Sequence record: PZ386964.1
DNA length: 64,000 bases
Direction: 5' to 3' (one strand)
Origin: a phage
The position numbers and the translations under genes are program-made. Below the pieces are notes generated by a model. The model was not told the DNA's origin and ran no database searches. It saw only the letters and a list, made by a program, of their open reading frames with translations. This document shows, piece after piece, positions 1,542 to 48,785 of the stretch; positions within the stretch are counted from its first letter, which is position 1; each line of letters opens with the position of its first letter.

Positions 1542-2186
1542 ATGATTAATGCAAACGTAATATCTAAAGGGACAGGATGCAGCACGGATGTTGCAGAAAA
1601 TTGGGTGGACCCTTTCAAGCAGGCTTGTGAGCACTACGGAATAAAAAGCAAGAATGCCATTGCAGCATTCCTTGCAAACGTAGGAGTAGAGACGGGCGGC
1701 TTGAAGACCTTTGTGGAAAATCTCAACTACTCTGCACAGGGCCTTGCCAATACATGGCCTAGTCGTTACAGCGTCAACGGTCGTGCTGGAAGCGCCCCGA
1801 ACTCATTGGCCCTGTCGATTGCACGTAAACCTATGGAAATCGCCAATAATACATACGCAAACCGCATGGGCAACGGTTCGGTAGCATCTGGCGACGGTTG
1901 GAAGTACCGTGGCCGTGGTGCCATTCAGCTGACTGGCAAAGCGAACTATGCTGAATATACGCGTCAATCAGGCTATGATGCATTGAACAATCCTGATATT
2001 CTGACTGAACCAAAATACATTGCCGACAGCGCGGCATGGTTCTTTAAGAATAGTGGTTGTATTCCTCTTGCGGATGCAGGGAATTTTGATTCAACCGTTA
2101 AGCGGATTAATGGGGCCGCGCCGAACGCAGCGAACCACGGTGAGTTGCGAAGAAAGCGTTACAAGGATGCACTAGCAGTCATGTAA
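1542..2186 (+). CDS. Endolysin, glycoside hydrolase family 19 (chitinase-like) type
   Basis: 214 aa with the motif YRGRGAIQLTGKANY and overall GH19-like pattern; no signal peptide; followed by a strong terminator hairpin. Confidence 0.8.
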   Translation: MINANVISKGTGCSTDVAENWVDPFKQACEHYGIKSKNAIAAFLANVGVETGGLKTFVENLNYSAQGLANTWPSRYSVNGRAGSAPNSLALSIARKPMEIANNTYANRMGNGSVASGDGWKYRGRGAIQLTGKANYAEYTRQSGYDALNNPDILTEPKYIADSAAWFFKNSGCIPLADAGNFDSTVKRINGAAPNAANHGELRRKRYKDALAVM

Positions 2187-2192
2187 GAAAAA

Positions 2193-2218
2193 GGCCCATA
2201 TGGGCCTTTGTTTATTTT
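2193..2218 (+). terminator. Rho-independent terminator after the endolysin gene
   Basis: Perfect palindrome GGCCCATATGGGCC followed by TTTGTTTATTTT; A-run upstream, so it could also act on the minus strand. Confidence 0.7.
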
Positions 2219-2424
2219 ACGGCTTCAACTTGGACGGGCGGAGCGGAACTTGTATCAATGTCTGGCAAGTCGAAGTAATACCCCGCCATACCAATCACAC
2301 CTACAATCGCGGCCCGTGCCACCTTGTTGCTAATTGACTCCCCAATAAGCTTTACCAACAGGGACAAGATTTGAGACGTCAAAGCCTTTTTCAGCCTTTT
2401 GTTTTCTTCCAAATCTTTCTGCAT
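2212..2424 (-). CDS. Small membrane protein with one predicted transmembrane helix, next to the endolysin
   Basis: In-frame ATG preceded by GGTGG; hydrophobic segment AAIVGVIGMAGYYF; start lies just past the stop of the upstream minus-strand gene. The track's longer 2442 start is a TTG. Confidence 0.4.
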   Translation of the reverse strand: MQKDLEENKRLKKALTSQILSLLVKLIGESISNKVARAAIVGVIGMAGYYFDLPDIDTSSAPPVQVEAVK

Positions 2425-2438
2425 AACTACCACCCATG

Positions 2439-2981
2439 TCAACGCACTTCCTGTGTCTTAACATTACCTGAAGCATCTCTCAAGGGCAGTGGATAGTAGG
2501 CCATTTGGTAGTCTGATACGCCTTCAATGTGATAAAACACGATTACGTCTTTGCTGTTGATGAGCATGTTAACGACATCTGATTTATCTTCTGGAGTGAG
2601 TATTAGTGCGCCGCCTGTCCTGCTGTCTACTGCAACAGGGTATGTCTTGTCGACAAGGCCGCTGTCCAATGTATTATACCTGACAACGATTTCAGGGGCA
2701 TCAACTTTTGCCATCGACATTCCGAACACAAACGACACGACCTGCCGACCGCGATCATTCATTACGCACATCTTTTCTTTGTCAAATCTTTCTTTTATTA
2801 CGTCGTATTTATTCCAGCAAAACTCAAATGACTGCCCATTGTTGAAATATCTTGTCAAAACTTTTGCACTTCCATTCGGCGGCGTGAACATATTTTCAGC
2901 CGATGCAGTCTTGGTGAAGAATATAACTGTCAGCATAGCCATGATGATGATCAAAACAATCTTTAAGTTTTTCGATTTCAT
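2439..2981 (-). CDS. Secreted or periplasmic protein of unknown function
   Basis: N-terminal signal-peptide-like sequence (MKSKNLKIVLIIIMAMLTVIFFTKTASA); a sigma70-like promoter (TTTACT, 16 bp, TATACT) lies upstream on the minus strand. Confidence 0.5.
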   Translation of the reverse strand: MKSKNLKIVLIIIMAMLTVIFFTKTASAENMFTPPNGSAKVLTRYFNNGQSFEFCWNKYDVIKERFDKEKMCVMNDRGRQVVSFVFGMSMAKVDAPEIVVRYNTLDSGLVDKTYPVAVDSRTGGALILTPEDKSDVVNMLINSKDVIVFYHIEGVSDYQMAYYPLPLRDASGNVKTQEVR

Positions 2982-3012
2982 TATAATTCACCTTTTGATT
3001 ACGAATATTAAT

Positions 3013-3040
3013 AGTATAGGCCGAAGGTTTTGAAAGTAAA
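3013..3040 (-). promoter_or_regulatory. Sigma70-like promoter for the 2439-2981 gene
   Basis: On the minus strand: -35 TTTACT (plus 3035-3040), 16-bp spacer, -10 TATACT (plus 3013-3018). Confidence 0.45.
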
Positions 3041-3050
3041 TAAGGCGAAA

Positions 3051-3085
3051 GGTAAATAAAAGAAAAGCCGGAAATTTCCGGCTTT
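3051..3085 (-). terminator. Rho-independent terminator ending the ligase / MazG / spanin transcription unit
   Basis: Palindrome GCCGGAAATTTCCGGC (3067-3082) followed on the minus strand by TTTTCTTTTATTT. Confidence 0.65.
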
Positions 3086-3157
3086 ATGTATACACTGTAT
3101 ATTAAATTCTATAAAACGGCGCGATAGATTATACGCAACAATTATTTATCCAGTGTG

Positions 3158-4132
3158 TTAAAAATACTCCATATCGGTAATATCACGGAAGCATTTATAA
3201 AGCGCAGAGCGCGGCACGTCAACGATGCCAAAGTTAAAGAATTTATACGTCAAGTATTTGTGGCGATAATTTTCGCGATTATCCCAAAGCATCTTCCGCT
3301 CTGCCATAGGCATTGAACCTGCGGACACACGGAAAGGAATCATCTCACCCTTCTCATCTACATACTTTGGATTGACTACGACAAATGATCCGAGATAACC
3401 CTTGGCAACGAGTCCTTCAGCTTCCTTTGATCGTTTTGTGCGACCAAGCTCATCAATGAACGCTTCGTTGTTATTCTCCATCATCTCGACGAAATCTATG
3501 ATCTGTCCTTCTTCGTCGGTCCACGGCTTGTCTTTCCATACATCACGCGACTTCGGCGTTGCGCGACCATGCTTGTATTTGCCCGTCCACGATTTGCCGT
3601 ATAAGCCTTCATATCCAAGCTGGTCCGCTTCGACTTGCATTGCCGCGTATTGATCCATATTCTCAATGTTTCGGTATTCAAGGGCGCGAAGGAATGGTCT
3701 GTGGCCATGGTCCAAGAGATACTGATTGACCTCAGCAACTCTAGCCCGATAGTTCGCATAACGCTTTTCAAAAGGTAAATCGGGGTCGCTGAAGTCATCA
3801 AACACCCACCATGTAAAGTTAGTTATTGCATCAGTATTCATGCACGCAGTATATGCCTGCTGCATGACGTTCTTGTCATTAGGATTGCCGTCGATGAGTT
3901 CACCATCAAGGCCGTAAATCAAATCGCCCAAGAAAAGGAACTCTTTCTTGATTTGAACGTTTCGCAGCGGCATTCCAGACGTACCCATAGGAAGCTTGTC
4001 ATAAGCCATAGCACGTATGCCATCAACCTTAAATGACAATCCGCAAGGTAACGGAACGTCTTCACCGCGTTCGATGATTTGCTTACGTTGACAGCCTTTC
4101 ATTGGCTTAAGCGCTTTGATCTCTCCTGCCAT
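3158..4132 (-). CDS. ATP-dependent DNA ligase
   Basis: Adenylation motif KVDGIR (KxDGxR), LDGELI and EGLYGK motifs typical of ATP-dependent ligases; ATG at 4132 overlaps the stop of the upstream gene. Confidence 0.75.
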   Translation of the reverse strand: MAGEIKALKPMKGCQRKQIIERGEDVPLPCGLSFKVDGIRAMAYDKLPMGTSGMPLRNVQIKKEFLFLGDLIYGLDGELIDGNPNDKNVMQQAYTACMNTDAITNFTWWVFDDFSDPDLPFEKRYANYRARVAEVNQYLLDHGHRPFLRALEYRNIENMDQYAAMQVEADQLGYEGLYGKSWTGKYKHGRATPKSRDVWKDKPWTDEEGQIIDFVEMMENNNEAFIDELGRTKRSKEAEGLVAKGYLGSFVVVNPKYVDEKGEMIPFRVSAGSMPMAERKMLWDNRENYRHKYLTYKFFNFGIVDVPRSALYKCFRDITDMEYF

Positions 4133-5297: not shown

Positions 5298-6158
5298 TTA
5301 AAACTCTTCTGCGTCGGTCGGAGTTTCATTAACAGGGCCAGCGGCACCGCTTGCTTCTTCCTGCTTGCTGCGGTCAATGTTAACGTTGCCGCCAACTACA
5401 TCGTTGTGGAATGCTTTGGCGACTTCATACAGACCTTTGTCCTGCACCAGACCTTCCAGCTCAAACTTCAGAACTGACCAGGTGTTGCCATCTTTGGACT
5501 GAGACGCAGTACCCATGCGAACGATGTTCATGAAGGTCGGCGGAGTTTTCAGGCCCTGCGGAGTCTGAACTTTCTTCTGCTGCAGCGCGGTCATCAGCAT
5601 GCGAGACGGCTTGATCATGGAAGAAGTCAGAGACAGCATTGCGCTACCAAATTCACCAGTTTCTTCGTTCAACAGAATCACGAAGTGGTTACGTGTATCT
5701 GCGTAGTAAGGTGATTTCTTCTCGTGCACCTTGCCGTTCTCGTCTGGCACAAACACCTTACCGTTGATTTCAACAGCGCGGCCTGCTGCGACTTCTGCAT
5801 CAACGTGCTCTTTGGTGAATTCACCTTTAAAGCCTTTATCGTCGGACTCGCGACCGCCCCAAAGGATGAAGGTGCGTTTGAATGCGCAGGGGATGATCTG
5901 CACACCTTTCTTGCCGTCATACAATTCACCAGTAACGGTGTTGTACAACATGCCAGCTTTTGCGCCAGGAACGTGTTTTGGATCATCTTCGTCGACCATC
6001 GGAGACATCTTTTGCAGCACGACGATAAAAGGAATGGCATAAGCGTCGGCATCGGCACCTTCAAAGCCAGCGCCAAAATCGGTCATGTCGACAAAATCAG
6101 CCATAGCGGACATCTGGGTGTTTTTCACTGCAACTTCGGTAGTTTCTTTCTTAGACAT
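5298..6158 (-). CDS. Putative single-stranded-DNA-binding protein
   Basis: 286 aa ending in an acidic tail with terminal Phe (ETPTDAEEF), reminiscent of T7 gp2.5-type SSBs; sits in the replication block; terminator hairpin downstream. Confidence 0.4.
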   Translation of the reverse strand: MSKKETTEVAVKNTQMSAMADFVDMTDFGAGFEGADADAYAIPFIVVLQKMSPMVDEDDPKHVPGAKAGMLYNTVTGELYDGKKGVQIIPCAFKRTFILWGGRESDDKGFKGEFTKEHVDAEVAAGRAVEINGKVFVPDENGKVHEKKSPYYADTRNHFVILLNEETGEFGSAMLSLTSSMIKPSRMLMTALQQKKVQTPQGLKTPPTFMNIVRMGTASQSKDGNTWSVLKFELEGLVQDKGLYEVAKAFHNDVVGGNVNIDRSKQEEASGAAGPVNETPTDAEEF

Positions 6159-6217
6159 TTGATGTTTTCCTATAGTATCAAGTTTCGTGGCAACCTGATT
6201 TCAAGATAAAGGTTAAA

Positions 6218-6775
6218 TTACTTTTTGCTTTTAGGCAAGGTTATTTTAGCTTCTTTATACTCAAAAACGCTAATATCTTCACTAACTGGATTACCCGCTT
6301 CCAGCTGTTCTTTTACAAATGACTTCAGTGTAGCAGAATGAATGCCTTGTTTCAACGTGGCTTCAACACCATCTTCACGCAGCGCGGCAACAATCTCTTG
6401 CGCTTGCTCGATTTCTTCGCGACCGAACTCAGCCGTGACGCTGGACTTGATCAAGCCGCCGTAACCGTTGTTGACAAGCCAATCGAATACCTTCAATTCA
6501 TTTTCTTTCTTGATTGAAGCATTTACTTTTGACTCGACCTTGATTTTGGTCTTGTCTTCAAGCTTGATTTCGGACACGCCAAGCTCATCCATAACGCCAG
6601 GAAGCAGAACAGTTTTGATTTCACTGATGCGCTGCTTTTGCATATCAGCTTCATCTTCAAGCTCTGTCAAAGCTTCTTGGCGCTCTGCCAATTCCGATAC
6701 TAAGCGCGCAAGACGCTCCTGAATGCTCTCAGGAGCAACCTGCGGCAAATCATCTTCCCAATTAATATTGCTCAT
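6218..6775 (-). CDS. Hypothetical protein with N-terminal coiled coil
   Basis: 185-aa ORF coupled to the upstream gene; charged coiled-coil N-terminus; no confident family assignment. Confidence 0.5.
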   Translation of the reverse strand: MSNINWEDDLPQVAPESIQERLARLVSELAERQEALTELEDEADMQKQRISEIKTVLLPGVMDELGVSEIKLEDKTKIKVESKVNASIKKENELKVFDWLVNNGYGGLIKSSVTAEFGREEIEQAQEIVAALREDGVEATLKQGIHSATLKSFVKEQLEAGNPVSEDISVFEYKEAKITLPKSKK

Positions 6776-7035
6776 ATTTTACCTTCTTGCATTAGCCCTT
6801 CAACACGGGTCATTTGATAACGTTCAGGTTTCCAAGCCGCCAAAGCCTTCTCAGCGCCTTTTAAAGTCTTATATGCCTTGATGCCAGGCATAATGACGGT
6901 ATTCACCCCAGCACCGTTGCCATAATCAAACTCTTTTACAACGCGGAACATGCCGTCAATTTCTTTGACCAAAAGACGTTTGAACGCGATTGCGCCAGTA
7001 GCTTCATTTTTGTAACGTTCAAGGATGCGTACCAT
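6772..7035 (-). CDS. Hypothetical protein
   Basis: 87-aa ORF with an upstream sigma70-like promoter (TTGACT, 17 bp, CATAAT) and AGAGGA ribosome-binding site. Confidence 0.5.
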   Translation of the reverse strand: MVRILERYKNEATGAIAFKRLLVKEIDGMFRVVKEFDYGNGAGVNTVIMPGIKAYKTLKGAEKALAAWKPERYQMTRVEGLMQEGKI

Positions 7036-7067
7036 TTTGTATTCCTCTATTTCGTTTCGATGAAGTA

Positions 7068-7096
7068 ATTATGACTCATCTTCCGTGACAAGTCAA
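7068..7096 (-). promoter_or_regulatory. Sigma70-like promoter with conserved leader motif (upstream of the 6772-7035 gene)
   Basis: Minus strand: -35 TTGACT (plus 7091-7096), 17-bp spacer, -10 CATAAT (plus 7068-7073); leader contains CATCGAAACGAA, shared with the promoter near 14.0 kb. Confidence 0.45.
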
Positions 7097-7111
7097 ATTA
7101 TTTTTTTGATA

Positions 7112-8635
7112 TTAATTCATCTTTTTGCCGTCGAGGATGTGATCAGCAAGCATTGACTTCATACTGAGTGAACGCTGAATTTCTTCGTCGATGGTATCAA
7201 CACCAATAAAATCAACATACAACACGCTTGATTTGGTGCCGATGCGGTGATTTCGGTCTTCGGATTGTTTGCGCAGCTCGTTGTCGTAGTTGCAAGAATA
7301 ATAAATTGCCAAGTCAGCGGCGGTAAGCGTGATTCCGATGCCTGCCGCGGCTGCGTGACACACCAACACTTGCGTTCCACCGTTCTCGACTGTGTTTTTC
7401 TGGAAGTCATCAATCAAGAACTCGCGCTGCTCTTTTGATGTTTCACCGTTGTACACACCAGTGACCACGCCTTCAGACTCAAGCCAGTCCTTAATCTGGT
7501 TCATCTCTTCCTTAAAGATGGCCCAAACAATGAATTTGCGCTCTGGGTCGTCTTCCAGCACCCCTTCCACATAATCCTTAAAGGCTGTGAATCGTGGGTT
7601 GTCTTCCATGTAGACCATCTCATCATACACCTTAACAAAGCCTGATGTCACCTGCTTCATCTTGGTGCGAGATGCGATCATCTCAAACTTAACGTTTTCT
7701 TCTTCGCCTTTATACTCCATCAGATAATTGTACTCATTCTTGAGTTCATCATAGACATCGCGCTGCTTAGGCGACAACTCGAAGTCGATAAACTTGTACA
7801 CCTTCTCTGGAAGGTCCGGCAGGTATTCCGCTTTTGTCGCGCGGAAATAGTGCGGCTCCATCAGCCGGATAAGCTTGTCAAGGTTTTTGTACATCGGTCG
7901 GCCAAACTGGTCTTTGCGCGGCACTTGCGGAATGCCATAACCGTTGCCGCCGATTTTCTTGAGAATGGCCTGCATCTCTGGGTCGTGCGCTTCAAGCAGC
8001 ACTGTAAATTCAGAGTTAAATGCGCGGAACGATTTGGTGCCAAGCAAACCTGCTTCAAGGAAGTGATACTGCATGTAAATATCAGCAGGCGAGCGCGGCA
8101 GCGGCGTACCGGAAAGGATTCGACGGGCCTTTGCCAGCCGTCCCAATTCCACAACCTTGATGGAGCGTTTGGCTGTGTTATTTTTGATACGCGTCGATTC
8201 ATCAATGATCATCAAACAGCGGTACTTCTTCAGTACGGACTCAATGTGTTGATAACCGACTGGCGTGTTCACCGTGTCAATGTTGAATGAGAAGATTCGT
8301 GCAGGCACTTCGCCTTCAGGATAGTGATCAGCAAACATCTTCTCCCAAAGTGCCTTGCCCTTTTTAGTTTTCATTTTGTCATTGCCGCGCCAGTAATGAC
8401 CAATCCATTTAATGGAAAGGTGCTCTGGTGCTTCACGACGAATCCAGTTTGAGTGTACACCGTTAGGAGCGATTACAACCATGGCATCAAATGCGCCAGC
8501 GGTAAAATGCTTTTCAAACTCTGCCAAAGCGGTCCAGGTTTTGCCAAGACCCTGCTCCATGAAATAAGCAAAGTATTTTCTGCGGCCTGCTTTATCAAGC
8601 GCCAATAATTGGTGGCGCATTCCTTGTGTTTTCAT
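7112..8635 (-). CDS. SNF2-family DNA helicase / ATPase
   Basis: Walker A GLGKT, DExx box IIDEST, and a C-terminal helicase domain pattern. Confidence 0.8.
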   Translation of the reverse strand: MKTQGMRHQLLALDKAGRRKYFAYFMEQGLGKTWTALAEFEKHFTAGAFDAMVVIAPNGVHSNWIRREAPEHLSIKWIGHYWRGNDKMKTKKGKALWEKMFADHYPEGEVPARIFSFNIDTVNTPVGYQHIESVLKKYRCLMIIDESTRIKNNTAKRSIKVVELGRLAKARRILSGTPLPRSPADIYMQYHFLEAGLLGTKSFRAFNSEFTVLLEAHDPEMQAILKKIGGNGYGIPQVPRKDQFGRPMYKNLDKLIRLMEPHYFRATKAEYLPDLPEKVYKFIDFELSPKQRDVYDELKNEYNYLMEYKGEEENVKFEMIASRTKMKQVTSGFVKVYDEMVYMEDNPRFTAFKDYVEGVLEDDPERKFIVWAIFKEEMNQIKDWLESEGVVTGVYNGETSKEQREFLIDDFQKNTVENGGTQVLVCHAAAAGIGITLTAADLAIYYSCNYDNELRKQSEDRNHRIGTKSSVLYVDFIGVDTIDEEIQRSLSMKSMLADHILDGKKMN

Positions 8636-9054
8636 GACAATTCCTCTAAATACTTGATGATGTGATGAATAGTTCCCTTCACGATTATCTCACGTTGAAC
8701 GTCTGCAGTATTATAACGCTTTAATTCAATAGAAGGGTGGACTAAATAAAACATCTTCTCAGAATCAACCTTAAGCAGAACAAATGATGGGTATTTCCAA
8801 TCATTCCACGAAGAAAGAAAGCTGCATTGACCTTTCTCAAATGCATTTCTGAAAGGTGCAGTGGTGACCCTTGCAGGCCACGATTCAAAGAACTTCATTT
8901 CAAGCCAAAAGCCGCGCCCTTTCCGGTTGGTGCCGATTACGTCCGGCACGCCATCACCAGTCATCGACTCGATTCGTTGAAGCTTCAATACTGACTCTGA
9001 ATGCTTCTTTAAAGGTACGAATATGTATTTCTGCTCACGGTTATTTGTTGCCAT
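8632..9054 (-). CDS. VRR-NUC-like nuclease (PD-(D/E)xK fold)
   Basis: GVPDVIG and WLEMKF motifs consistent with VRR-NUC; immediately downstream of the SNF2 helicase, a common pairing. Confidence 0.55.
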   Translation of the reverse strand: MATNNREQKYIFVPLKKHSESVLKLQRIESMTGDGVPDVIGTNRKGRGFWLEMKFFESWPARVTTAPFRNAFEKGQCSFLSSWNDWKYPSFVLLKVDSEKMFYLVHPSIELKRYNTADVQREIIVKGTIHHIIKYLEELS

Positions 9055-11938
9055 CTGGATACACCTGTTTGATAACGTCGACTATGAACATGTCAATGCC
9101 TTCAAGCTTGCGACCTTTCATCAGGAAGAATGCGCCGTTCCCGACGTTTTCAGCAATGTATTTCCCGTACTTCTGGAACTTTTCTGGACGAATCCTGAAG
9201 CGCATTGGCGAGTCGGTCGAGTCGTCTTTGCACATAAGGTCGATGAACTGAGTCTCAAGCTTGTTTCCGTACTGGTCAAACTCTGCGTAGCGGCCATCAG
9301 CTTGAAGACCTTTTTTAAGCTTGCCGTGCTTTGTATAGATGCCGCGCTCAAGTCGTTTACGGATGCGTGTCGCTTCGTTCTCGTCTGCAAGCACTTTCTT
9401 TGTCAACTTGCCGATTACTATTGCACGCTCGTCATCACCGACTTCCTTCATCTGGCGTATTGAAGCGCCGGACGTCACGCCAATAAGATAAGGGTCATTA
9501 TACGCCCAGCCAAACTTTGTGTGCATCTCTGTAAGGTCGCCGTATTTGACTTCAGCATTGGCCAATGCATCCTTTTGCTTTTGCGTTAAGGTTCCGGCTT
9601 CACGTGCTTCGATATACTTCATCGCCTTCACCATTCCGTATCCTTTCGCGTTCATGATGCCGCCGATTAGCTTTCCGTTCGCGATGGTCCAGTTCATCGA
9701 AGAGTGATCAGGGTCGATTGGCACATAATCCACGCCTTCTTTCGCAAGTTCACGTAGTATCGCAATCGTCTGGTCTTCGTCCTTAGCAGCGCGTAAGCAG
9801 GCAGCGGCAAATTCCAACGGGTAGTGTCGCTTAAGCCACAAAGTCCAGTAGGTCACGACCGCGTATGACACGGAGTGTGACTTGTTAAAGCCCCATGACC
9901 CGAACGTGGCCATCGCTTGCCAAAGCTTTCTTGCATCCGCTTCCGGTACACCGTTATTTATTGCTCCTGCAACGAAGTCTTCGCCAAGCTTGTTAAAGTA
10001 TTCTTCACCCTTACGGCCTGACATCGCCTTACGTACAGCGGACGTTTTCGCCCAGTCAAATGAACCAATCTCTTTAACCACGGCCATGATTTGCTCTTGG
10101 TAAAGAAACACGCCGTAAGTCTCTTTTAAGTACGGCTCAAGCTGCGGCACGTCGTATTCAATCGGCGCACGCCCTGCCGCGCGTTCAATGTATTTCTGGG
10201 CCATACCGGACGACAACGGGCCAGGTCGACCCAAAGCTGTCAGGTTGTCGATTTTGTTAAAGTTATCGACGTGAACAAAGTTTGTTACTGAGCGTACAGC
10301 ATCACCTTCAAACTGGAAGATGCCTGACATCTTGTTTTCGTTAAGAATGTCAAGGACGCTTTGATCATCAAGCTTGATTCCGTAGAGCGTTTCAGCATCA
10401 ATAACGCCTGTATCAGAAATAATGCCGAGAGTACGAAGGCCCAGCGCATCAAGCTTCAAAAGGTTTAGGTATTCGCTGTCAGGCTTATCGATTTGCGCAA
10501 TCCCTTCTGCAGTTACAGTACAGTAATCAGAGATTGGGTCATTACACACAATGATTCCCGCTGCGTGAACACCTGTGTGAGACGGGTGAATCTCAAGGTC
10601 ACCCATGCAACGCGCGGCGTCAGGATATTTCGCCACGAACTCTTGACCCGTGGTCGTTGTTGCAAAGGTATCCTCCAGGCCGTGACCATAACGGGCGTCA
10701 CCGGATGAGTATTCAAGCAGTGCGTTTTTAATGTTGGCTGTTTCGTGGTATCCAATGTTGAACTTCTTACCAACTTGAGCCATTACTGAGTTGGCCTTAA
10801 GCGTGTTGATGTTGCCAAGCTTTGCAACGTTCATTTCGCCGTATTTCTCTTTAAGATAATCAAACACCATATAGCGTTTGGTATCTTCAAAGTCGATGTC
10901 GATGTCAGGAAGGTCGGCGCGGCTTACGTCAATGAATCTGGCAAACAGCAGCTTATACGGGATTGGGTCCACTTCCGTGATGCCGAGGCAATAGCAAACA
11001 AGTGAACCGGCTGATGAGCCGCGCGCAGGACCGACGAGCATTTTTGTTTTTGCGAATCGTACAAGGTCCGCTACTACCAGAAAGTATGAGTCGAAATCTT
11101 TCAGCTGAATCTGGTGAATTTCTTCGTTGAAGCGGTCCTCATATTCCTGAGTCCATTCTTTGATGTGACCTGCTTTTAGACGGTACTCCATCCCCTCACG
11201 CGCAAGCTTTACCATGTCACCAGCAAGGTGAATAATCGGTGCCTTACGCAATTTCAGGTCAAGTCCGACTATGCCGTTTGCTATGTCAACAGCATTGGCC
11301 GTTGCCTGATTGAGCTCATCTTCAGTCAAGATGCCTTTAAGCTGTTTGCGCAAGTCTTCCGCGTCAACGATGCAGTGCGGCTTGACCGTGTCGCGCACTT
11401 CCCAAGCATAAGCGAAGTCAACGTGCTCAGGAGAAGGCATGTGATTGTATCCGGTTAAAACCAGCGGCCTTCCACTGCTACGATGAGCCAATGCCTGGCG
11501 CTTTGCCAAAAGGAACGACGATGGGTTGACGTCTATATAGTCGTAGTCCTCTGGCCGCAGCAACTCCACAGCACCGCCACAGAATTTAACGACGCCATCG
11601 AGCGCACCGAACTCTGAACGGGTAAGTCCACCGCGCTGCGTTGCAAGTGTTGTAGCATTGTAAAAAGATTTTAAGTCAAGGGCCAATATCCAAGCCTTCG
11701 GTTTGAATCCCTTTTTAGGGTCCGCATCAGGGTCGATGATTGGAATCTCCATCCCAAACATAGGCTTAATATCATTTTTCTGGCATTCCTTTTCCCAGCG
11801 AACGTGACCCCATGTATTGTTATCAACTAATGCCGCGACTTCGCAACCCAACTCTTTGAGCCGTGCTATAATTTCAGGATGCCGTCCATATACTTCTTTG
11901 AACGTGTAACCGCTGCGAACTCTCAATTGTGGAAACAT
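9041..11938 (-). CDS. dnaE: DNA polymerase III alpha subunit-like replicative polymerase (DnaE type)
   Basis: 965 aa; N-terminal PHP-like region and the motif GSSAGSLVCYCLGITEVDP matching the DnaE signature. Confidence 0.85.
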   Translation of the reverse strand: MFPQLRVRSGYTFKEVYGRHPEIIARLKELGCEVAALVDNNTWGHVRWEKECQKNDIKPMFGMEIPIIDPDADPKKGFKPKAWILALDLKSFYNATTLATQRGGLTRSEFGALDGVVKFCGGAVELLRPEDYDYIDVNPSSFLLAKRQALAHRSSGRPLVLTGYNHMPSPEHVDFAYAWEVRDTVKPHCIVDAEDLRKQLKGILTEDELNQATANAVDIANGIVGLDLKLRKAPIIHLAGDMVKLAREGMEYRLKAGHIKEWTQEYEDRFNEEIHQIQLKDFDSYFLVVADLVRFAKTKMLVGPARGSSAGSLVCYCLGITEVDPIPYKLLFARFIDVSRADLPDIDIDFEDTKRYMVFDYLKEKYGEMNVAKLGNINTLKANSVMAQVGKKFNIGYHETANIKNALLEYSSGDARYGHGLEDTFATTTTGQEFVAKYPDAARCMGDLEIHPSHTGVHAAGIIVCNDPISDYCTVTAEGIAQIDKPDSEYLNLLKLDALGLRTLGIISDTGVIDAETLYGIKLDDQSVLDILNENKMSGIFQFEGDAVRSVTNFVHVDNFNKIDNLTALGRPGPLSSGMAQKYIERAAGRAPIEYDVPQLEPYLKETYGVFLYQEQIMAVVKEIGSFDWAKTSAVRKAMSGRKGEEYFNKLGEDFVAGAINNGVPEADARKLWQAMATFGSWGFNKSHSVSYAVVTYWTLWLKRHYPLEFAAACLRAAKDEDQTIAILRELAKEGVDYVPIDPDHSSMNWTIANGKLIGGIMNAKGYGMVKAMKYIEAREAGTLTQKQKDALANAEVKYGDLTEMHTKFGWAYNDPYLIGVTSGASIRQMKEVGDDERAIVIGKLTKKVLADENEATRIRKRLERGIYTKHGKLKKGLQADGRYAEFDQYGNKLETQFIDLMCKDDSTDSPMRFRIRPEKFQKYGKYIAENVGNGAFFLMKGRKLEGIDMFIVDVIKQVYPDGNK

Positions 11939-32299: not shown

Positions 32300-32530
32300 T
32301 CGTTTTTGTTGGAAATTTTGAAGTGAGTGGCGTGGACCGTGGTGGTTTGAGGCTTGGTTGATACGTATGGAATTTAGGATATTGTGGATGAAAATAATAA
32401 ATAAAATGGAAATTTGTATTTATTTTTGGAGTATGAGCATTTGATTTTGGATTTTAGTGTGCGGATTTTGGAGAGTGAACCGTGGTGTGTGGTGGCGAAA
32501 GCCGCGCCGTGCCTGGATTCTATGGTTGAA
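32300..32530. repeat. Strand-skewed (GT-rich top strand) repeat region upstream of iteron locus A
   Basis: Repeated GGA(A)ATTTTG-like units and two direct copies of (G/A)ACCGTGGTG (32338-32350, 32478-32490), with an inverted copy at 32893-32905; TGTGGATGA at 32383-32391 is one mismatch from a DnaA-box complement. Confidence 0.4.
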
Positions 32531-32539
32531 GAGTACACT

Positions 32540-32812
32540 CTTACGGATAGGTTTTTATCCGTATCATGGCGCTAGGGTGCGCCGCGCCTGGATTTGTACA
32601 CTGAATCTTACGGATGATACGGATGATACGCCATTTTTCCTTATTGTAACCAGAATTATTTCAAAAATTAATTAACTCCATTTTGAATTAATTTAAATTA
32701 ATTTTTTCTACATCCTCATACTTATGTTAATTTATATATTTAACGTATTATCCGTAAGATATAAGTAAAAACAAAGACTTGCGGCAATACGGATGATACG
32801 TCATGATACGCT
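32540..32812. repeat. Iteron locus A: TACGGATGA-type repeats in both orientations flanking a ~100-bp AT-rich core
   Basis: Hairpin TACGGATA-6 nt-TATCCGTA (32542-32563); tandem ACGGATGAT twice (32610-32627); AT-rich 32641-32745 containing AATTAATTTAAATTA; inverted copy TATCCGTA (32749-32756); further TACGGATGATACG (32788-32800). Confidence 0.6.
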
Positions 32813-33024
32813 TCAACCAGCCAACTGCGGCTAAGTCATTGATTTGCATAACAAGCGGCGAAAGGGATGGATTTCTTTTATACGTATCAAACAGTACACC
32901 ACGCACCACGGTCCGTTATCCATTCAGCACTATGATTTGTGTACGTTTATAGCCATAATGAACATCAATCTGCACTTGAATATAATGTCCATCCATTGTA
33001 TAATTCACACTATTAATTTGCACT

Positions 33025-33513
33025 ATGGGATTTTGCACTATGAGTCAAGATTATGTAGCGATGCCTGAAGACTTTGAAGACCCGCGATTTGCAGAGCACA
33101 ATCAGGCTTTATTCGATGAGTTCATTGACCTTGTTATTCAGGGCCATGACATGCGCGCAGCTTTTGCACTAGTATTTGGAATGGAAGTTGCAACGGATAA
33201 CTACACTGGCCAGCGAATCCTTTGCGCGCAACGCAATCCATACTACAAGATGCGCTTCAAAAAGCGTATGGAAGAGATGCCACTCAAGGATTTGTGGAGC
33301 GTAAAAGGTGCAATTCACAATTTGGTCAAGCTTGTGCGTGATCCAGAAGTCGCGGCATCAGCCAAGCTTAATGCTATTCGTGAACTGAATATCATCTACG
33401 GCATCACGATGATTGATGAAAACGGCAATAGTAAAATGGGCCGTTCTATGGACGATTTCTACAAGGATTTTGGAGAGGCGGCCAAAGAAGGTGAGCAATT
33501 CTCCCGCCACTAG
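33025..33513 (+). CDS. Hypothetical protein, possibly DNA-binding; small-terminase-like at low confidence
   Basis: 162-aa ORF whose start codon sits inside the AATTTGCACTAT motif; helical N-terminal region then charged coiled coil; hairpin after the stop. Confidence 0.45.
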   Translation: MGFCTMSQDYVAMPEDFEDPRFAEHNQALFDEFIDLVIQGHDMRAAFALVFGMEVATDNYTGQRILCAQRNPYYKMRFKKRMEEMPLKDLWSVKGAIHNLVKLVRDPEVAASAKLNAIRELNIIYGITMIDENGNSKMGRSMDDFYKDFGEAAKEGEQFSRH

Positions 33514-33627
33514 CCAATTTGCACTATAAAACGGCCCTAGAACACATTTTCTCCACTTCTAGGGCCATCGGTAATACGACGGGGAAGGTTACAACCATAA
33601 ACGCGTTAGAAAGTGTATTATTATAAG

Positions 33628-33891
33628 TCATCTTTTAGTCACTTTCCGTAACAATTTACGACCTTCAACCGTCCAATCGAACGACTCCACCAGCAGATTT
33701 GCACCATAACCCAAGACGATGCGCCCTTTCTCGTTATCGACCCGCCAACAAGTCTCGAATAGCATTCGATTTGCACTATTAACTATTGCCGCAACGCGCG
33801 TTGGGTAAGCGCAATTTGCACTATGGTCATAAAGGGATAAGGTGCGACCACTTCCGATGGACAACGTAGCAATGAGAATAAGCGTATTCAT
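33628..33891 (-). CDS. Hypothetical small protein with hydrophobic N-terminus
   Basis: 87-aa ORF; C-terminal region paralogous to the C-terminus of the 33942-34568 product; carries two copies of the DNA motif (encoding SAN). Confidence 0.4.
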   Translation of the reverse strand: MNTLILIATLSIGSGRTLSLYDHSANCAYPTRVAAIVNSANRMLFETCWRVDNEKGRIVLGYGANLLVESFDWTVEGRKLLRKVTKR

Positions 33892-33941
33892 AAGCCACCA
33901 ATTTGCACTATGAAAAGCGACCCCGAAGGGCCGCCATTCAA

Positions 33942-34568
33942 TTAGATGATTTGGAATGTGTAGGATTTATTACCGAACTCGAAGTTCAAGCGCCCAGCTT
34001 CCTTAAGCTTCATGCGGAAGCGAATATGCTTGCTATCCGGTAGGCCCAGCGCGGCGAACGCTACGCGGACCGATTTGAACTCTCCTACACCCTCGACCAT
34101 AACGCCGTTACGGGTGAGACGCTTTTGCGCCACTTCCTTATTGTCCCAACTTTTTGCAATGCCTTCGCTATTCGAACGGCGATGGGAAGGAGTTCCATTT
34201 TGCACTACGCAATTTGCACTATCGTTTAAACCGCTCTTAACGAAGGCTTCATACTCTTCGTCGGTCATCGCGTCGAGTTCTTCCTGAGTCGGCTCGGCCT
34301 TTTTAACTACCGCACGCGCCTTATGCGTTTTTACATCGCTGGACACTTCCTCGCGCGGCTTCGCGTCGGGGATGGGCGATTCGTTGGACGGCTCATCGAG
34401 CGCGTTTAAGGACTCGATTAACGCGATTACGCGAGTCTCGGCGGTCCGGCGGTCCGCAAACTTCTTAATCGGCTTCGAACCGGAATTTGCATTATAAAAT
34501 GCAACGAGGTCGGCGGTCTTAGTTGCGATAACGTCGCCGCTAGTCGAGAAACGATTTAAGCTAACCAT
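33942..34568 (-). CDS. Hypothetical protein
   Basis: 208-aa ORF with TAGGAG site; C-terminal part (DSANC...WDNKE...NGVMVEGVG) paralogous to the 33628-33891 product. Confidence 0.5.
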   Translation of the reverse strand: MVSLNRFSTSGDVIATKTADLVAFYNANSGSKPIKKFADRRTAETRVIALIESLNALDEPSNESPIPDAKPREEVSSDVKTHKARAVVKKAEPTQEELDAMTDEEYEAFVKSGLNDSANCVVQNGTPSHRRSNSEGIAKSWDNKEVAQKRLTRNGVMVEGVGEFKSVRVAFAALGLPDSKHIRFRMKLKEAGRLNFEFGNKSYTFQII

Positions 34569-34648
34569 AATAAACTCCTATTTGTTAGGGCGCTAGGCGC
34601 GAAAGAATTTTATTAAAGCGCCGCGCACGACGCTCTAAAAATCCTCTC

Positions 34649-34933
34649 TTACGCTTCGACGAGGGAGAAGGTCTCAAATTCTTCTTCGCCCATAACGAGT
34701 AAGATATTACCGATTTCGACCGCTTCGAAGAAGTATCCGTTAACGTTTACTTCGAAGGCTTCGCGGTCCGATTCCGGTAGCGCCGCGTAAAGTTTAAAAG
34801 CCTCGGCGACCGTTACCCCACCCGCCTCGATAGTTTGGTCTACGTTCGCGGCGTAGACTTCGGATAAATTTTGTTTAACGCCGTAGTTCTCGACGATAGC
34901 GTTACGAATAGAAGAAACGTTAAGAATAGCCAT
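34649..34933 (-). CDS. Small acidic protein, paralog A
   Basis: 94 aa, strongly acidic (net about -12); TAGGAG site; paralogous to the 35568-35858 product. Confidence 0.55.
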   Translation of the reverse strand: MAILNVSSIRNAIVENYGVKQNLSEVYAANVDQTIEAGGVTVAEAFKLYAALPESDREAFEVNVNGYFFEAVEIGNILLVMGEEEFETFSLVEA

Positions 34934-35002
34934 TTTAAACTCCTAGTTGGGAGAGGCGTTAACGACCTATTCGTTAACTCATCCCGTCCCGATATGAGTA
35001 CA

Positions 35003-35029
35003 TTATAATATAGTGTAGAAAAAAGTAAA
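35003..35029 (-). promoter_or_regulatory. Possible minus-strand promoter for acidic paralog A (divergent from the 35157 gene promoter)
   Basis: Minus strand: -35 TTTACT (plus 35024-35029) within an inverted copy of the AAAGTGCTTTACT element; -10 TATAAT (plus 35003-35008) at a short 15-bp spacing. Confidence 0.3.
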
Positions 35030-35072
35030 GCACTTTTTCGATAAAAATGAGATAAATTATTTTATCTTTTTC

Positions 35073-35100
35073 TTTACTTCTTCGTACACTCGCATATACT
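35073..35100 (+). promoter_or_regulatory. Sigma70-like promoter for the 35157-35459 gene
   Basis: -35 TTTACT (35073-35078), 16-bp spacer, -10 TATACT (35095-35100); shares TTTACTTCTTCGTACACT with the next promoter. Confidence 0.5.
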
Positions 35101-35156
35101 TGTTTATATCGAGACGGGCGATGTCCCTTCCTTCTACTAGCATCGGGAGCTTTATT

Positions 35157-35459
35157 ATGACTACTTTAATCTCTTCCATCCTTACTTACGACGAAGACCG
35201 CTTAACCGTTCGCTCTCTTATCGCCGCCGTTAACGCGGAACTAGAATCTAGCGCCATTAAGGTCCGCGCGGTCGCCTTCATCGGCCTTTCCTTCGACGAT
35301 ATGAAGTATGCCGAACGTAGCGCTATCCGCTTCGCGAAGACCGACGACGAAGCCGTTACCCTTATCGAGACGGTTACGCCGCGCGGCGAAGCGTTAATTA
35401 TCGTCGAGTATATCGACGTAGAAGGCGATAAGGCTTATAAATATTTTATCGCAGAATAA
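35157..35459 (+). CDS. Small acidic protein, possibly a third member of the same family
   Basis: 100 aa; GGGAG site; promoter TTTACT, 16 bp, TATACT upstream; acidic composition similar to the flanking paralogs. Confidence 0.5.
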   Translation: MTTLISSILTYDEDRLTVRSLIAAVNAELESSAIKVRAVAFIGLSFDDMKYAERSAIRFAKTDDEAVTLIETVTPRGEALIIVEYIDVEGDKAYKYFIAE

Positions 35460-35470
35460 CGAAAAAGTGC

Positions 35471-35499
35471 TTTACTTCTTCGTACACTAAGACTATAAT
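35471..35499 (+). promoter_or_regulatory. Sigma70-like promoter for acidic paralog B
   Basis: -35 TTTACT (35471-35476), 17-bp spacer, -10 TATAAT (35494-35499). Confidence 0.55.
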
Positions 35500-35567
35500 G
35501 TTTTATATCGAGAGGGGGATGAGGTAGCGAATAGGTCGCTACCCTCCCGACCAACTAGGAGATTATT

Positions 35568-35858
35568 ATGATTACTTTAGCCGCTATCCGTAACGCTCGC
35601 GCCGAAACTTCCGAAAACTCTAACGTATTTGGCGAAAAACTTAAAAACGTTTATCTCTTTAACGTAGATGCGACTATCGAGGAGCTTCATAGTCCTATCG
35701 ATTTTAGCGAATTTACGGAACTCGAAGAGGAAGATATTTCTACCTTCCGCGTTACTATCGAAGGCAAGGTTTATTTTGCTACGGAGTTCGGCGGCGAATA
35801 TCTCGCGGTATCCGAAGGCGAAGGCCGTTACTCTTTCTTTAAAATCGTCTCCTTATAA
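35568..35858 (+). CDS. Small acidic protein, paralog B
   Basis: 96 aa; AGGAG site; promoter TTTACT, 17 bp, TATAAT upstream; terminator downstream; N-terminal and FxV...G...F.A.E.G motifs shared with paralog A. Confidence 0.55.
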   Translation: MITLAAIRNARAETSENSNVFGEKLKNVYLFNVDATIEELHSPIDFSEFTELEEEDISTFRVTIEGKVYFATEFGGEYLAVSEGEGRYSFFKIVSL

Positions 35859-35878
35859 TACCCTTCCGTTATTAATAG

Positions 35879-35903
35879 GCCGCGCTTAGTCGCGGCTTTT
35901 CTT
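35879..35903 (+). terminator. Rho-independent terminator after acidic paralog B
   Basis: Hairpin GCCGCG-CTTAGT-CGCGGC followed by TTTTCTT. Confidence 0.6.
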
Positions 35904-35905
35904 CG

Positions 35906-36557
35906 TCCCTATCTCGATGCGCTTCTCCGCGAAAACTCCTTTATCCTTCCCTTCTTCGTCGCATAATCTTCATCGAGATGCGCCTTAGTTCGCATAACAG
36001 GTATTACGTTAAATGGAGAACATCGCGTAAGTCCTTGTTTTATATAGACACCTATATCGGACCGTTAGGGCGGGTCGCGTAAGTCGTTGTTTTATAAAGG
36101 CGCAAAACTTTCCCTTCGTTCCGAACTAAAACGAGAAATATGCCGACCCTTCGCCGGAAAATAGTACGCATGCGAAATTACATGCATCTAGAATAATCCC
36201 CACCGATATTATCCTACACGCAATCATTCGCTTTCGAATCATTATGCTTCATATTATTATGCGTCGAATCATTCGCTTTCGAATTGTAACGCTGGAAACT
36301 GTAACGTCGATTGATTATTGCGTTCGTGTGGTTTTTATGGCATGGGTCTTTTGGTGCGTTTTGCTACTTGATGGAATTTGCAGTACACTAATCAAAATAC
36401 GACACATTTGGTCCACTAACTTTTCAAAGAAAAAGTCCTAGACAGTACCGTACTATTTTGTACCCACAGGAAATTTGCAGTACACTCCTGTGCGGCAGGC
36501 AAAATAAAGGGCCGCACCAAGCGACCCACGATTCACGGTTAAATCAACAAGCACCCA
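35906..36557. repeat. ORF-free, repeat-rich ~650-bp region
   Basis: Direct repeat CGCGTAAGTC(C/G)TTGTTTTATA (36014 and 36076); palindrome ATTCGCTTTCGAAT twice (36225, 36270); AATTTGCAGTACACT twice (about 36366 and 36470); hairpin GTGCGGC-14 nt-GCCGCAC. Confidence 0.5.
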
Positions 36558-36938
36558 CTATTCACTCTTATGGGCATCACCAAAGCCATCCGCAATCTGG
36601 CTGATCAGCGATTCAATGGACACAGTTTTACCAATTGATCGAGCGGTAATAGCAAGCATATTATCAATCAAACCGCGATTGACTTCACATGTTCCAGGCT
36701 TTGATTCATCTCCAGGACAACCAAAAAGCTGGTCGCGCAAACTTTCGAGGGAACGCTCAATATTTTCCAGCTTCTCTTCTAAATCGGATTGGCGACGTAA
36801 AACCCATGTTAAGTCGCGGTTGCCGACTTCCAATCCATTATAATCGCAAGATGGAACGTCAATTTTGATACTGGAACCAAAAGCAGTACCGCTGCCTTTA
36901 GTATATGTGTGGCTAATAGAATCATTTTTATTTGACAT
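36558..36938 (-). CDS. Hypothetical protein with coiled-coil segment
   Basis: Internal ATG (MSNKNDSISHTY...) with AAAGG site; last gene of the minus-strand block. Confidence 0.45.
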   Translation of the reverse strand: MSNKNDSISHTYTKGSGTAFGSSIKIDVPSCDYNGLEVGNRDLTWVLRRQSDLEEKLENIERSLESLRDQLFGCPGDESKPGTCEVNRGLIDNMLAITARSIGKTVSIESLISQIADGFGDAHKSE

Positions 36939-48461: not shown

Positions 48462-48723
48462 ATGACGTATCATCCGTATCAAGTAAGTAGTTGTTTTCGA
48501 AAGAATCTTACGGGTGATACGGATGATACGCGTTGCCGCGATACTTTATAGGAATTCAAATAAATTAATTTAAAATTATATATCTAATTTAATTTTATTT
48601 TTTTATAAACTCTTATATATGAAAAGTATCCGTATCATCCGTATCATCCGTAGCACACCAGTGATAGCGCGGCTTATACACCGATACGGATAAAAATACG
48701 CCTCATTTTATCCGTATCATCCG
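48462..48723. repeat. Iteron locus B: long inverted repeat of GATACGGATGATACG-type units around an AT-rich core, plus a 13-bp-arm hairpin
   Basis: Left arm CTTACGGGTGATACGGATGATACGCG (48506-48532); AT-rich 48533-48618 containing AATTAATTTAAAATTA; right arm GTATCCGTATCATCCGTATCATCCGTAGC (48618-48646); hairpin GATACGGATAAAA-10 nt-TTTTATCCGTATC (48675-48710). Confidence 0.6.
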
Positions 48724-48785
48724 TATCACACTAATTAAGTCGCGGCTATATCGGTTGTTATACATATTCAAACCATAATTATTGT

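Follow-up and report, generated by a model that had tools for sequence, protein, structure and literature searches.

The DNA analyzed here, the window, is a 64-kb stretch of the genome of a Wifcevirus, an Escherichia coli myovirus that is 92 to 96% identical to members of its genus (ECML-117, WFC, and Mansfield relatives); all positions are window coordinates. The element under study is an array of short motif copies that runs in a single orientation through the gene of the small terminase subunit (terS; 33040 to 33513, plus strand, 157 amino acids) and into its two neighbors. The terS product matched the phage E217 TerS decamer (PDB 7UXE) in a phmmer search (E = 7.3e-34), its AlphaFold2 (AF2) model returned 7uxe_A as the top Foldseek match (E = 1.4e-5), and the Mansfield homologue is annotated as terminase small subunit. 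Upstream of terS lies a near-consensus sigma-70 promoter (TTGAAT-17-TATAAT; 32976 to 33004, plus strand; score, 10/12). Two minus-strand genes converge on terS: p87 (33628 to 33891), which encodes a small protein with a signal-peptide-like N terminus and has homologues in the phages Kyle, PA1, and Hera, and p208 (33942 to 34568), whose product belongs to the function-unknown family phrog_4730.

The array and these genes lie within the direct terminal repeat (DTR) of the genome, which is present once in this collapsed assembly and spans 32680 to 36351 (or 36432), as placed by homology to the edges of the Mansfield and Kyle repeats or to the WFC record. The left physical end is at 32680, where three independent records (WFC, WFH, and Mansfield) all open. 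Mansfield carries a repeat_region of 3673 bp determined by PhageTerm (PMC6753283), the WFC record begins and ends with the same 3784 bp (0 mismatches), and Korf et al. described a terminal repeat of about 3.7 kb (PMC6563267). The right boundary differs by ∼80 bp between the two sources, at 36351 (Mansfield PhageTerm) or 36432 (duplicated ends of WFC); we favor 36351 because the Kyle boundary is homologous to that of Mansfield. The motif copies lie 322 to 1815 bp from the left physical end, and the array extends from -113 to +1176, counted from the start of terS. Against Pfam, PHROGs, and NCBIfam, the proteins encoded in the DTR yielded no function beyond two function-unknown PHROG families, and no Rfam match at E≤0.1 was found on either strand of 32300 to 36800.

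An earlier note on this DNA had claimed a one-strand, irregularly spaced motif array within ∼1.2 kb and had proposed to count the motif against shuffled controls. The array was borne out. The 9-mer TTTGCACTA occurs nine times in the window, always on the plus strand and only between 33017 and 34221, and 0 of 100 dinucleotide shuffles reached this count (mean, 0.74; maximum, 3). The hexamer GCACTA, likewise, is present at 10 copies in a stretch of 1.5 kb versus 0.29 expected (p about 1e-12). In Bas99, a close relative, TTTGCACTA is absent from both strands of the first 50 kb. Extended to 12 bp, the motif AATTTGCACTAT has five exact copies in the window (33015, 33516, 33813, 33900, and 34211), together with copies bearing one mismatch (33030, 33768, and 34484) or two (33002, 33696, and 34197), all on the plus strand; a weak further copy, CTTTTGCACTAG, lies at 33161.

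The copies ignore gene borders. The first, the degenerate AATTCACACTAT (33002 to 33013; two mismatches), overlaps the -10 box of the terS promoter and is invariant in 14 Wifcevirus genomes, whereas copy 2 (AATTTGCACTAT, 33015 to 33026) occupies the terS leader and copy 3 (ATTTTGCACTAT, 33030 to 33041) includes the start codon at 33040. Copies 2 and 3 thereby overlap two in-frame ATGs (33025 and 33040), as the note had observed for the start-codon region; relatives annotate the second as the start. Copy 4 (CTTTTGCACTAG, 33161 to 33172), with weak flanks, lies inside terS, is invariant in the 14 genomes, and has its position (+126) in common with the metagenomic lineage L155. The copy that had been noticed past the stop codon (33511 to 33513) is copy 5 (33516 to 33527), two bases beyond it and just before an inverted repeat (33535 to 33569). 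Within p87 are copy 6 (GATTTGCACCAT, 33696 to 33707), which reads GATTTGCACTAT or GATTCGCACTAT in relatives, copy 7 (GATTTGCACTAT, 33768 to 33779), whose NSAN codons align with motif copies of the Kyle and PA1 homologues, and copy 8 (AATTTGCACTAT, 33813 to 33824). Copy 9 (AATTTGCACTAT, 33900 to 33911) lies between the start of p87 and the stop of p208, in a gap that holds a motif copy in every lineage. The p208 gene hosts copies 10 (ATTTTGCACTAC, 34197 to 34208) and 11 (AATTTGCACTAT, 34211 to 34222), both in a segment that Kyle and PA1 lack and both missing in 3 of the 14 Wifcevirus genomes, namely those with another p208 allele. It also hosts the weak copy 12 (AATTTGCATTAT, 34484 to 34495), which varies, is degenerate in several close relatives, and is possibly not functional. 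Seven of the 12 copies are intragenic, and the spacing between copies is irregular (13 to 355 bp in the window; 10 to 390 bp in the phasing analysis), with no helical phasing found at periods of 10 to 11 bp (Rayleigh p about 0.7). The copies inside the minus-strand genes had been said to encode a Ser-Ala-Asn tripeptide; five of the six do fall in the x-Ala-Asn frame, with Ser encoded at the three consensus copies.

Related phages, where the note had proposed to look for the array, provided the strongest evidence. Six further lineages carry the core RATYTGCACTAY on the plus strand only, in arrays of 875 to 1001 bp that reach from the terS promoter to the p87/p208 gap; over all lineages, array length is 0.9 to 1.3 kb between the terS promoter region and that gap. 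The TerS proteins of the six are 43 to 68% identical to that of the window. Four are metagenomic, with GCACTA on the plus strand around terS 10 times in L155 (TerS 68% identical to that of the window), 11 times in L158 (54%), 9 times in L156 (51%), and 7 times in L157 (47%). The other two are Pantoea phages. Kyle (TerS 43% identical to that of the window) has 14 plus-strand copies at 477 to 1478, with no others on that strand of its 6.8-kb locus, and resembles the window in layout, with a DTR of 3603 bp and terS 357 bp from the left end. PA1 (TerS 60% identical to that of Kyle) has 13 plus-strand copies at 6271 to 7146 of its locus. Taken together, the seven lineages have the GCACTA core 74 times on the plus strand and 0 times on the minus strand of their leftmost 2 kb, and the logo drawn from these 74 sites reads R-A-T-Y-T-G-C-A-C-T-A-Y. 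Within the genus, the array was kept in 11 of 11 Wifcevirus loci inspected. A scan of IMG/VR for pairs of the motif's 8-mer returned Wifcevirus as the sole genuine array among the matches listed (at least 120 loci), the other clusters being coding-repeat-like and on unrelated contigs; this argues weakly against a general host factor that other phages use as well. When IMG/VR was searched with one TerS sequence or with three, every genome returned was already known.

Individual sites turn over. Their positions are common to close lineages (the window and L155; L156 and L158) and differ between groups, and protein alignments place only some motif copies on homologous codons, with one pair inside a lineage-specific insertion. 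This turnover, together with the copies in lineage-specific insertions, indicates that the DNA itself and the density of its sites are under selection, so that the maintained property is orientation and density rather than the position of any one site. The strand tally over seven lineages, with proteins down to 43% identity and many sites on nonhomologous codons, upholds the proposal of a DNA-level signal indifferent to gene borders and coding strand. Judged by sequence comparison, including its retention in relatives with protein identity down to 43%, the array is a real, strand-polar, cis-acting DNA signal. It belongs to the 3.7-kb DTR, within which it runs for 0.9 to 1.5 kb from the -10 box of the terS promoter.

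Other relatives do without the array. No GCACTA cluster was found in Pbunavirus Banzai, Xanthomonas phage XcP1, Burkholderia phage Maja, or Serratia phages Hera and MTx, all of which do carry homologues of terS and p208. When 12 TerS sequences are aligned, the two sets separate at residues 64-65, which are QR, KR, or RR in 8/8 array-bearing sequences and EA, ES, or EF in 4/4 array-free ones (MTx, Banzai, XcP1, and Maja). In the AF2 model, these residues form the C-terminal end of helix 56-65 (pLDDT of 84 to 90 there), which would be the second helix of a putative helix-turn-helix (HTH) made with helix 38-46. A change from acidic or neutral to basic residues on such a recognition helix would look like a gain of specific DNA binding. 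Separately, the Serratia phages Hera and MTx show plus-strand repeats of their own: CCAGC occurs 14 times on the plus strand and 0 times on the minus strand in the first 2 kb, and CGATAG recurs 9 to 10 times on the plus strand in the right half of the DTR (Hera 7477 to 9260, equivalent to MTx 1920 to 3703), with four copies within about 45 bp.

Among the functions that the note had offered, packaging recognition is the one best supported by context, with the array inside the DTR, starting 320 bp from the left end, and around terS. We tentatively favor the view that it is an orientation-dependent recognition array for TerS, or the terminase, that marks the terminal repeat. This view ranks first because of the position of the array (in the DTR near a genome end, around terS, and on the terS promoter), its restriction to this phage clade, the contrast at residues 64-65, and a precedent in HK97, whose TerS ring, with DNA threaded through it, slides and reads the sequence directionally (PMC11331095), as an orientation-dependent reader would. 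The packaging sites of P22 and SPP1 likewise lie in or beside terS (reviewed in PMC9611059), and Pbunavirus, which is reported to be a headful packager without a DTR (PMC12390725), has no array.

We infer that TerS is the reader and that its binding could act as follows. An E217-type TerS ring with N-terminal HTH domains would bind RATYTGCACTAY sites in one orientation, and TerS on the array would mark the terminal repeat on replicated concatemers. Bound TerS would then give polarity to terminase assembly or translocation, and the large subunit would cut at the repeat boundaries, which other, boundary-proximal elements would set. Occupied copies on the -10 box, leader, and start codon may also repress terS. 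The ring or motor would slide with a limited chance of recognition per site, as for HK97 TerS and as for Chi and RecBCD; a sliding reader is likelier than one fixed wrapped complex because copy number and orientation are kept and position and helical phase are not.

Several observations weigh against recognition by TerS. The solved homologue, E217 TerS, did not bind DNA to any appreciable extent in vitro (PMC9611059), and the GCACTA core is invariant despite TerS divergence to 43% identity. The unphased spacings disfavor a wrapped TerS-DNA complex of the classical type. MTx has a DTR of 3566 bp, terS 377 bp from the left end, and the same right-boundary element, with no GCACTA array, which implies that the array is not required for such ends unless MTx uses another word. 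The contrast at residues 64-65 may mark merely one clade, perhaps a single one comprising all eight array-bearing sequences, and is consistent with the hypothesis rather than proof of it for that reason. Within the 14 Wifcevirus genomes, motif columns are 17% variable versus 19% elsewhere, figures that make conservation within the genus uninformative at this divergence. Finally, other repeats, described below, lie nearer to the cuts than the array does: the ACGGATGATACG family on the left and the GAATCATT repeats with the boundary element on the right.

Several readings compete with TerS recognition, the first of them modeled on Chi. The complement of E. coli Chi (GCTGGTGG), CCACCAGC, occurs on the plus strand within 2 kb of the left end nine times in Kyle, seven in PA1, six in L156, five in L158, four in MTx, and twice in L157, and 0 times on the minus strand of the same 2 kb of these relatives. 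The clusters span 255 to 1972 in Kyle (L013), 5861 to 7433 in PA1 (L032), 323 to 1824 in L156, 411 to 1836 in L158, and 179 to 1276 in MTx (L034). The DTR of the window has a single CCACCAGC, at 33687, and L155 has none; a Chi-like CCACTAGC is seen at window position 33507. By the polarity of RecBCD, CCACCAGC on the plus strand is in the orientation read by the enzyme when it enters at the left end. Such arrays show that this zone is under selection for polar, end-related signals, which supports a tracking-enzyme logic for GCACTA and keeps a nonterminase reader open. With Chi the array has in common a single orientation relative to the DNA end, although its word is RATYTGCACTAY and not GCTGGTGG. 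It is possible, if doubtful, that the array acts as a polar signal of the Chi kind, private to the phage, which a machine traveling on DNA would read stochastically. This reader, either a sliding TerS ring with its motor or an end-processing enzyme of the host that the phage has retargeted, would thereby recognize its own terminal repeat and the direction of it. Rather unlikely in our estimate is a version with no terminase involved, where a translocase, a nuclease, or a polar roadblock protein would act at the left end after injection or in replication, with end protection or processing, or recombination between terminal repeats, as the effect. That version draws on the plus-only CCACCAGC arrays of five relatives in the same 2 kb, on the fact that the GCACTA array is likewise strictly polar, unphased, and kept in density while positions turn over, and on the Chi-poor Wifcevirus (one copy) and L155 (none), which have only GCACTA. 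However, we know of no enzyme that recognizes GCACTA, a lack of Chi goes with no rise in motif copies (Wifcevirus and L155 have 10, Chi carriers 7 to 14), and a motif copy at the terS promoter in 4/7 lineages is left unexplained.

These promoter copies are what an operator array would account for. In the window, motif copies cover the -10 box, the leader, and the start codon of terS; a copy also overlaps or abuts the -10 box in L155 and L158 (TATAATCTGCACTAT) and in L157 (GCACTATAAT), so that the -10 box or transcription start is overlapped in 4/7 lineages, and further copies mark the terS stop codon and the p87/p208 gap. A transcription regulator, TerS itself or an early protein such as p208, could bind them to shut the terS promoter and control the convergent unit. 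We nevertheless consider this unlikely, as 7/12 copies lie in coding sequence far from promoters, strictly co-oriented nonpalindromic sites are not needed to regulate two converging units, Kyle and PA1 have no promoter copy, and p208, with its nearly invariant C-terminal helix, is present in motif-free relatives too. A role in replication, with the repeats serving an origin or the DTR-duplicating machinery as iteron-like sites or for priming, appears quite improbable. It would fit direct repeats in a single orientation, the location of terS 0.7 to 1 kb downstream of the primase-helicase gene in relatives, and the local DNA synthesis that DTR duplication needs, as in T7. Yet the spacing is irregular and unphased with most copies in genes, the cumulative GC-skew minimum falls near window position 20 kb, where the replication genes diverge, and the array sits where transcription converges. 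Moreover, XcP1 has four tandem 11-bp repeats (ACCCCAGAACA, 3063 to 3107 of L015) directly after its primase-helicase gene and well away from terS, which are a candidate iteron-like origin of the classical type. The partition-like array that the note had entertained lacks support for a related reason, neither regular tandem iterons nor helical phasing being found, and the array shows none of the regular, phased, noncoding tandem repeats of an iteron or partition site. The note's phage-specific promoter fared no better. All copies do point inward from the left end, as rightward promoters for a T7-like entry of the genome by transcription would, and CACTAT within the motif is reminiscent of CACTATAG in T7-group promoters and also has the A and T found in a -10 hexamer. 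Against this very improbable reading stand the annotation of Bas99, a well-annotated relative, which lists neither a phage RNA polymerase nor a sigma factor, the antisense direction in which most copies would transcribe through three genes, the lack of copies before any other gene in the 64 kb, and conservation over only ∼12 bp. In addition, no two-hexamer sigma-70 match coincides with any copy, save the terS -10 box adjoining copy 1, and the -24 GG of sigma-54 promoters is absent at the sole copy checked by hand (33516). None of the consensuses of host factors compared by eye (DnaA box, marbox, sigma-54, IHF, SlmA, and dif), fits the motif. We give practically no weight to chance, base composition, or a by-product of a Ser-Ala-Asn peptide repeat, which the shuffle counts and the lineage tally (74 versus 0, mostly on nonhomologous codons) already refute. 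The shared frame of five of the six minus-gene copies would favor a peptide, but TAG closes one of the three frames, making the bias weak evidence, and copies also lie in noncoding DNA and, in another frame, in the plus-strand gene.

The edges of the DTR carry elements of their own. Just right of the DTR edge in both Mansfield and Kyle lies a right-boundary element, TTTTGCTACTTGATGGAATTTGCAGTACACTAATCAAA (36357 to 36394, plus strand), which holds the first of the two variant sites reported by the note near 36.4 kb. Both copies of this variant, AATTTGCAGTAC(ACT), were confirmed, at 36375 and 36472; kinship with the array was not, and the variant is probably part of a separate boundary element. 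The right edges of Mansfield and Kyle are homologous although independently determined, with AATTT(G/C)CA..GTACACTAATCA ∼25 bp beyond the repeat in both, and the 36375 variant sits 24 bp outside the right boundary as mapped in Mansfield. Across seven aligned DTR lineages, MTx included, the element is invariant at TTT..AC....A.T......ACAC; only in Wifcevirus, Kyle, and PA1 does it closely resemble the array motif. The element is therefore family wide and, given its presence in MTx, which is array free, probably not part of the array. This weakens the view of the 36375 variant as one more array copy, placed to mark the right cut, as the conserved core differs from the array motif and occurs in MTx. 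The second variant site is a AATTTGCAGTACACT copy (36472 to 36486, plus strand) in the loop of a CACAGGA/TCCTGTG hairpin, and it is absent or altered in WFC, Bas99, TH32, Bas101, and Eco4M-7.

Several other repeats were noted in and around the DTR. The sequence ACGGATGATACG has 10 copies with at most one mismatch versus 0.22 expected, in both orientations, clustered at 32610 to 32800 and at 48466 to 48724. The first cluster brackets the left DTR boundary, 32680 being midway between inverted arms at 32605 to 32621 and 32744 to 32760, and the second occupies an intergenic gap within the head-gene module; relatives have lineage-specific versions of ACGGATGATACG around their left boundary. Short repeats of the GAATCATT type crowd the DTR interior just before the right boundary (36222 to 36275 in the window, 3400 to 3600 in L157, where at least eight copies are present, 3270 to 3370 in L156, and 3465 to 3600 in Kyle) and form a third repeat family that may take part in right-end recognition. 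An exact 19-bp repeat, CTTTACTTCTTCGTACACT, at 35072 to 35090 and 35470 to 35488, lies within promoter-like TTTACT-16/17-TATACT or TATAAT sites upstream of two small plus-strand genes (35157 to 35459 and 35568 to 35858), a duplicated promoter module with an inverted partner at 35012 to 35030. A 25-bp sequence, TCGCGTAAGTCnTTGTTTTATAnAG, is directly repeated at 36023 to 36047 and 36075 to 36099, 52 bp apart, in noncoding DNA toward the right of the DTR. Public assemblies contain many separate contigs of 3.2 to 4.4 kb with terS and p208 (for instance, 3983 bp in L157 and 3755 bp in a P0006 contig), as expected of a double-coverage terminal repeat that assembles alone, and Wifcevirus-like phages appear to be very common in E. 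coli sequencing runs.

The array can be set beside several known systems. The pacL/pacR sites of SPP1 and pac of P22 (in gene 3) are, like the array, cis signals in or beside terS near the packaging cut, and in SPP1 several TerS contact points flank that cut (PMC9611059). P22, however, has one 22-bp site and SPP1 two short boxed regions no farther than ∼200 bp from the cut, whereas here 7 to 14 co-oriented copies are dispersed over ∼1 kb, 0.3 to 1.8 kb from a precise DTR boundary, the ends are exact rather than headful, and the link to TerS is predicted. The lambda cosB (the R sites of gpNu1) and the HK97 cos site are short TerS recognition elements by terS and inside the packaged end, a role for which the array is a candidate. 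Lambda has three R sites of mixed orientation, plus IHF sites, within ∼120 bp of cosN, and HK97 one minimal site; both make cohesive ends and neither has a kilobase array kept in density, in contrast to the 3.7-kb terminal repeat here. Chi, as read by RecBCD, is similarly a short asymmetric word, oriented to a DNA end, in multiple copies, and selected for density, but it is unrelated in sequence and spread over the host genome, while the array is confined to one phage clade. The SRL/SRR arrays of T7 and pacB of T7 and T3, which Dunn and Studier are said to have described in 1983, are short direct repeats beside the terminal repeat that are reportedly thought to serve concatemer processing. They resemble the array as short direct repeats that accompany a terminal repeat in a phage whose ends are exact and terminally redundant; the T7 units are, however, tightly tandem 7-bp repeats, noncoding and outside a 160-bp repeat, and those of Wifcevirus are dispersed through genes inside a 3.7-kb one. 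Iterons such as those of P4 (ori/crr) and R1 parC are direct repeats of a protein-binding word, some of them on a promoter that the binding protein represses. They are regular, phased, and noncoding, unlike the array with its unphased, mostly coding copies.

The array motif appears to be previously undescribed: a literature search with its sequence returned only primers and unrelated matches, and the Wifcevirus papers do not mention these repeats. Outside T7 and T3, to our knowledge, little has been established on how phages with long exact terminal repeats recognize their DNA and cut it. If TerS is the reader, the array would represent a terminase recognition signal in the form of a kilobase-long co-oriented array, kept in density, inside a long terminal repeat. 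The structure of TerS of the E217/PB1 type has been solved and its DNA target has not been found (PMC9611059); the array provides a concrete 12-bp candidate target, the first for this TerS family, with Arg65, at the end of the modeled HTH helix, as a candidate protein contact and the TerS proteins of MTx and Pbunavirus as natural negative controls. Wifcevirus isolates grow on engineered E. coli K-12 (BASEL Bas98-101; PMC11990801), which makes the question directly testable. If the array is instead a phage-private counterpart of Chi, it would be the first density-selected, orientation-dependent packaging or end-protection code for phages with long DTRs, alongside genuine Chi arrays in sister lineages. 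Given the strict polarity, the turnover of sites, and the correctly oriented Chi arrays of sister phages, the first 1 to 2 kb of such terminal repeats may be a zone that gathers orientation-dependent signals for DNA-tracking enzymes, an idea that would bear on genome entry, defense against RecBCD, and concatemer formation.

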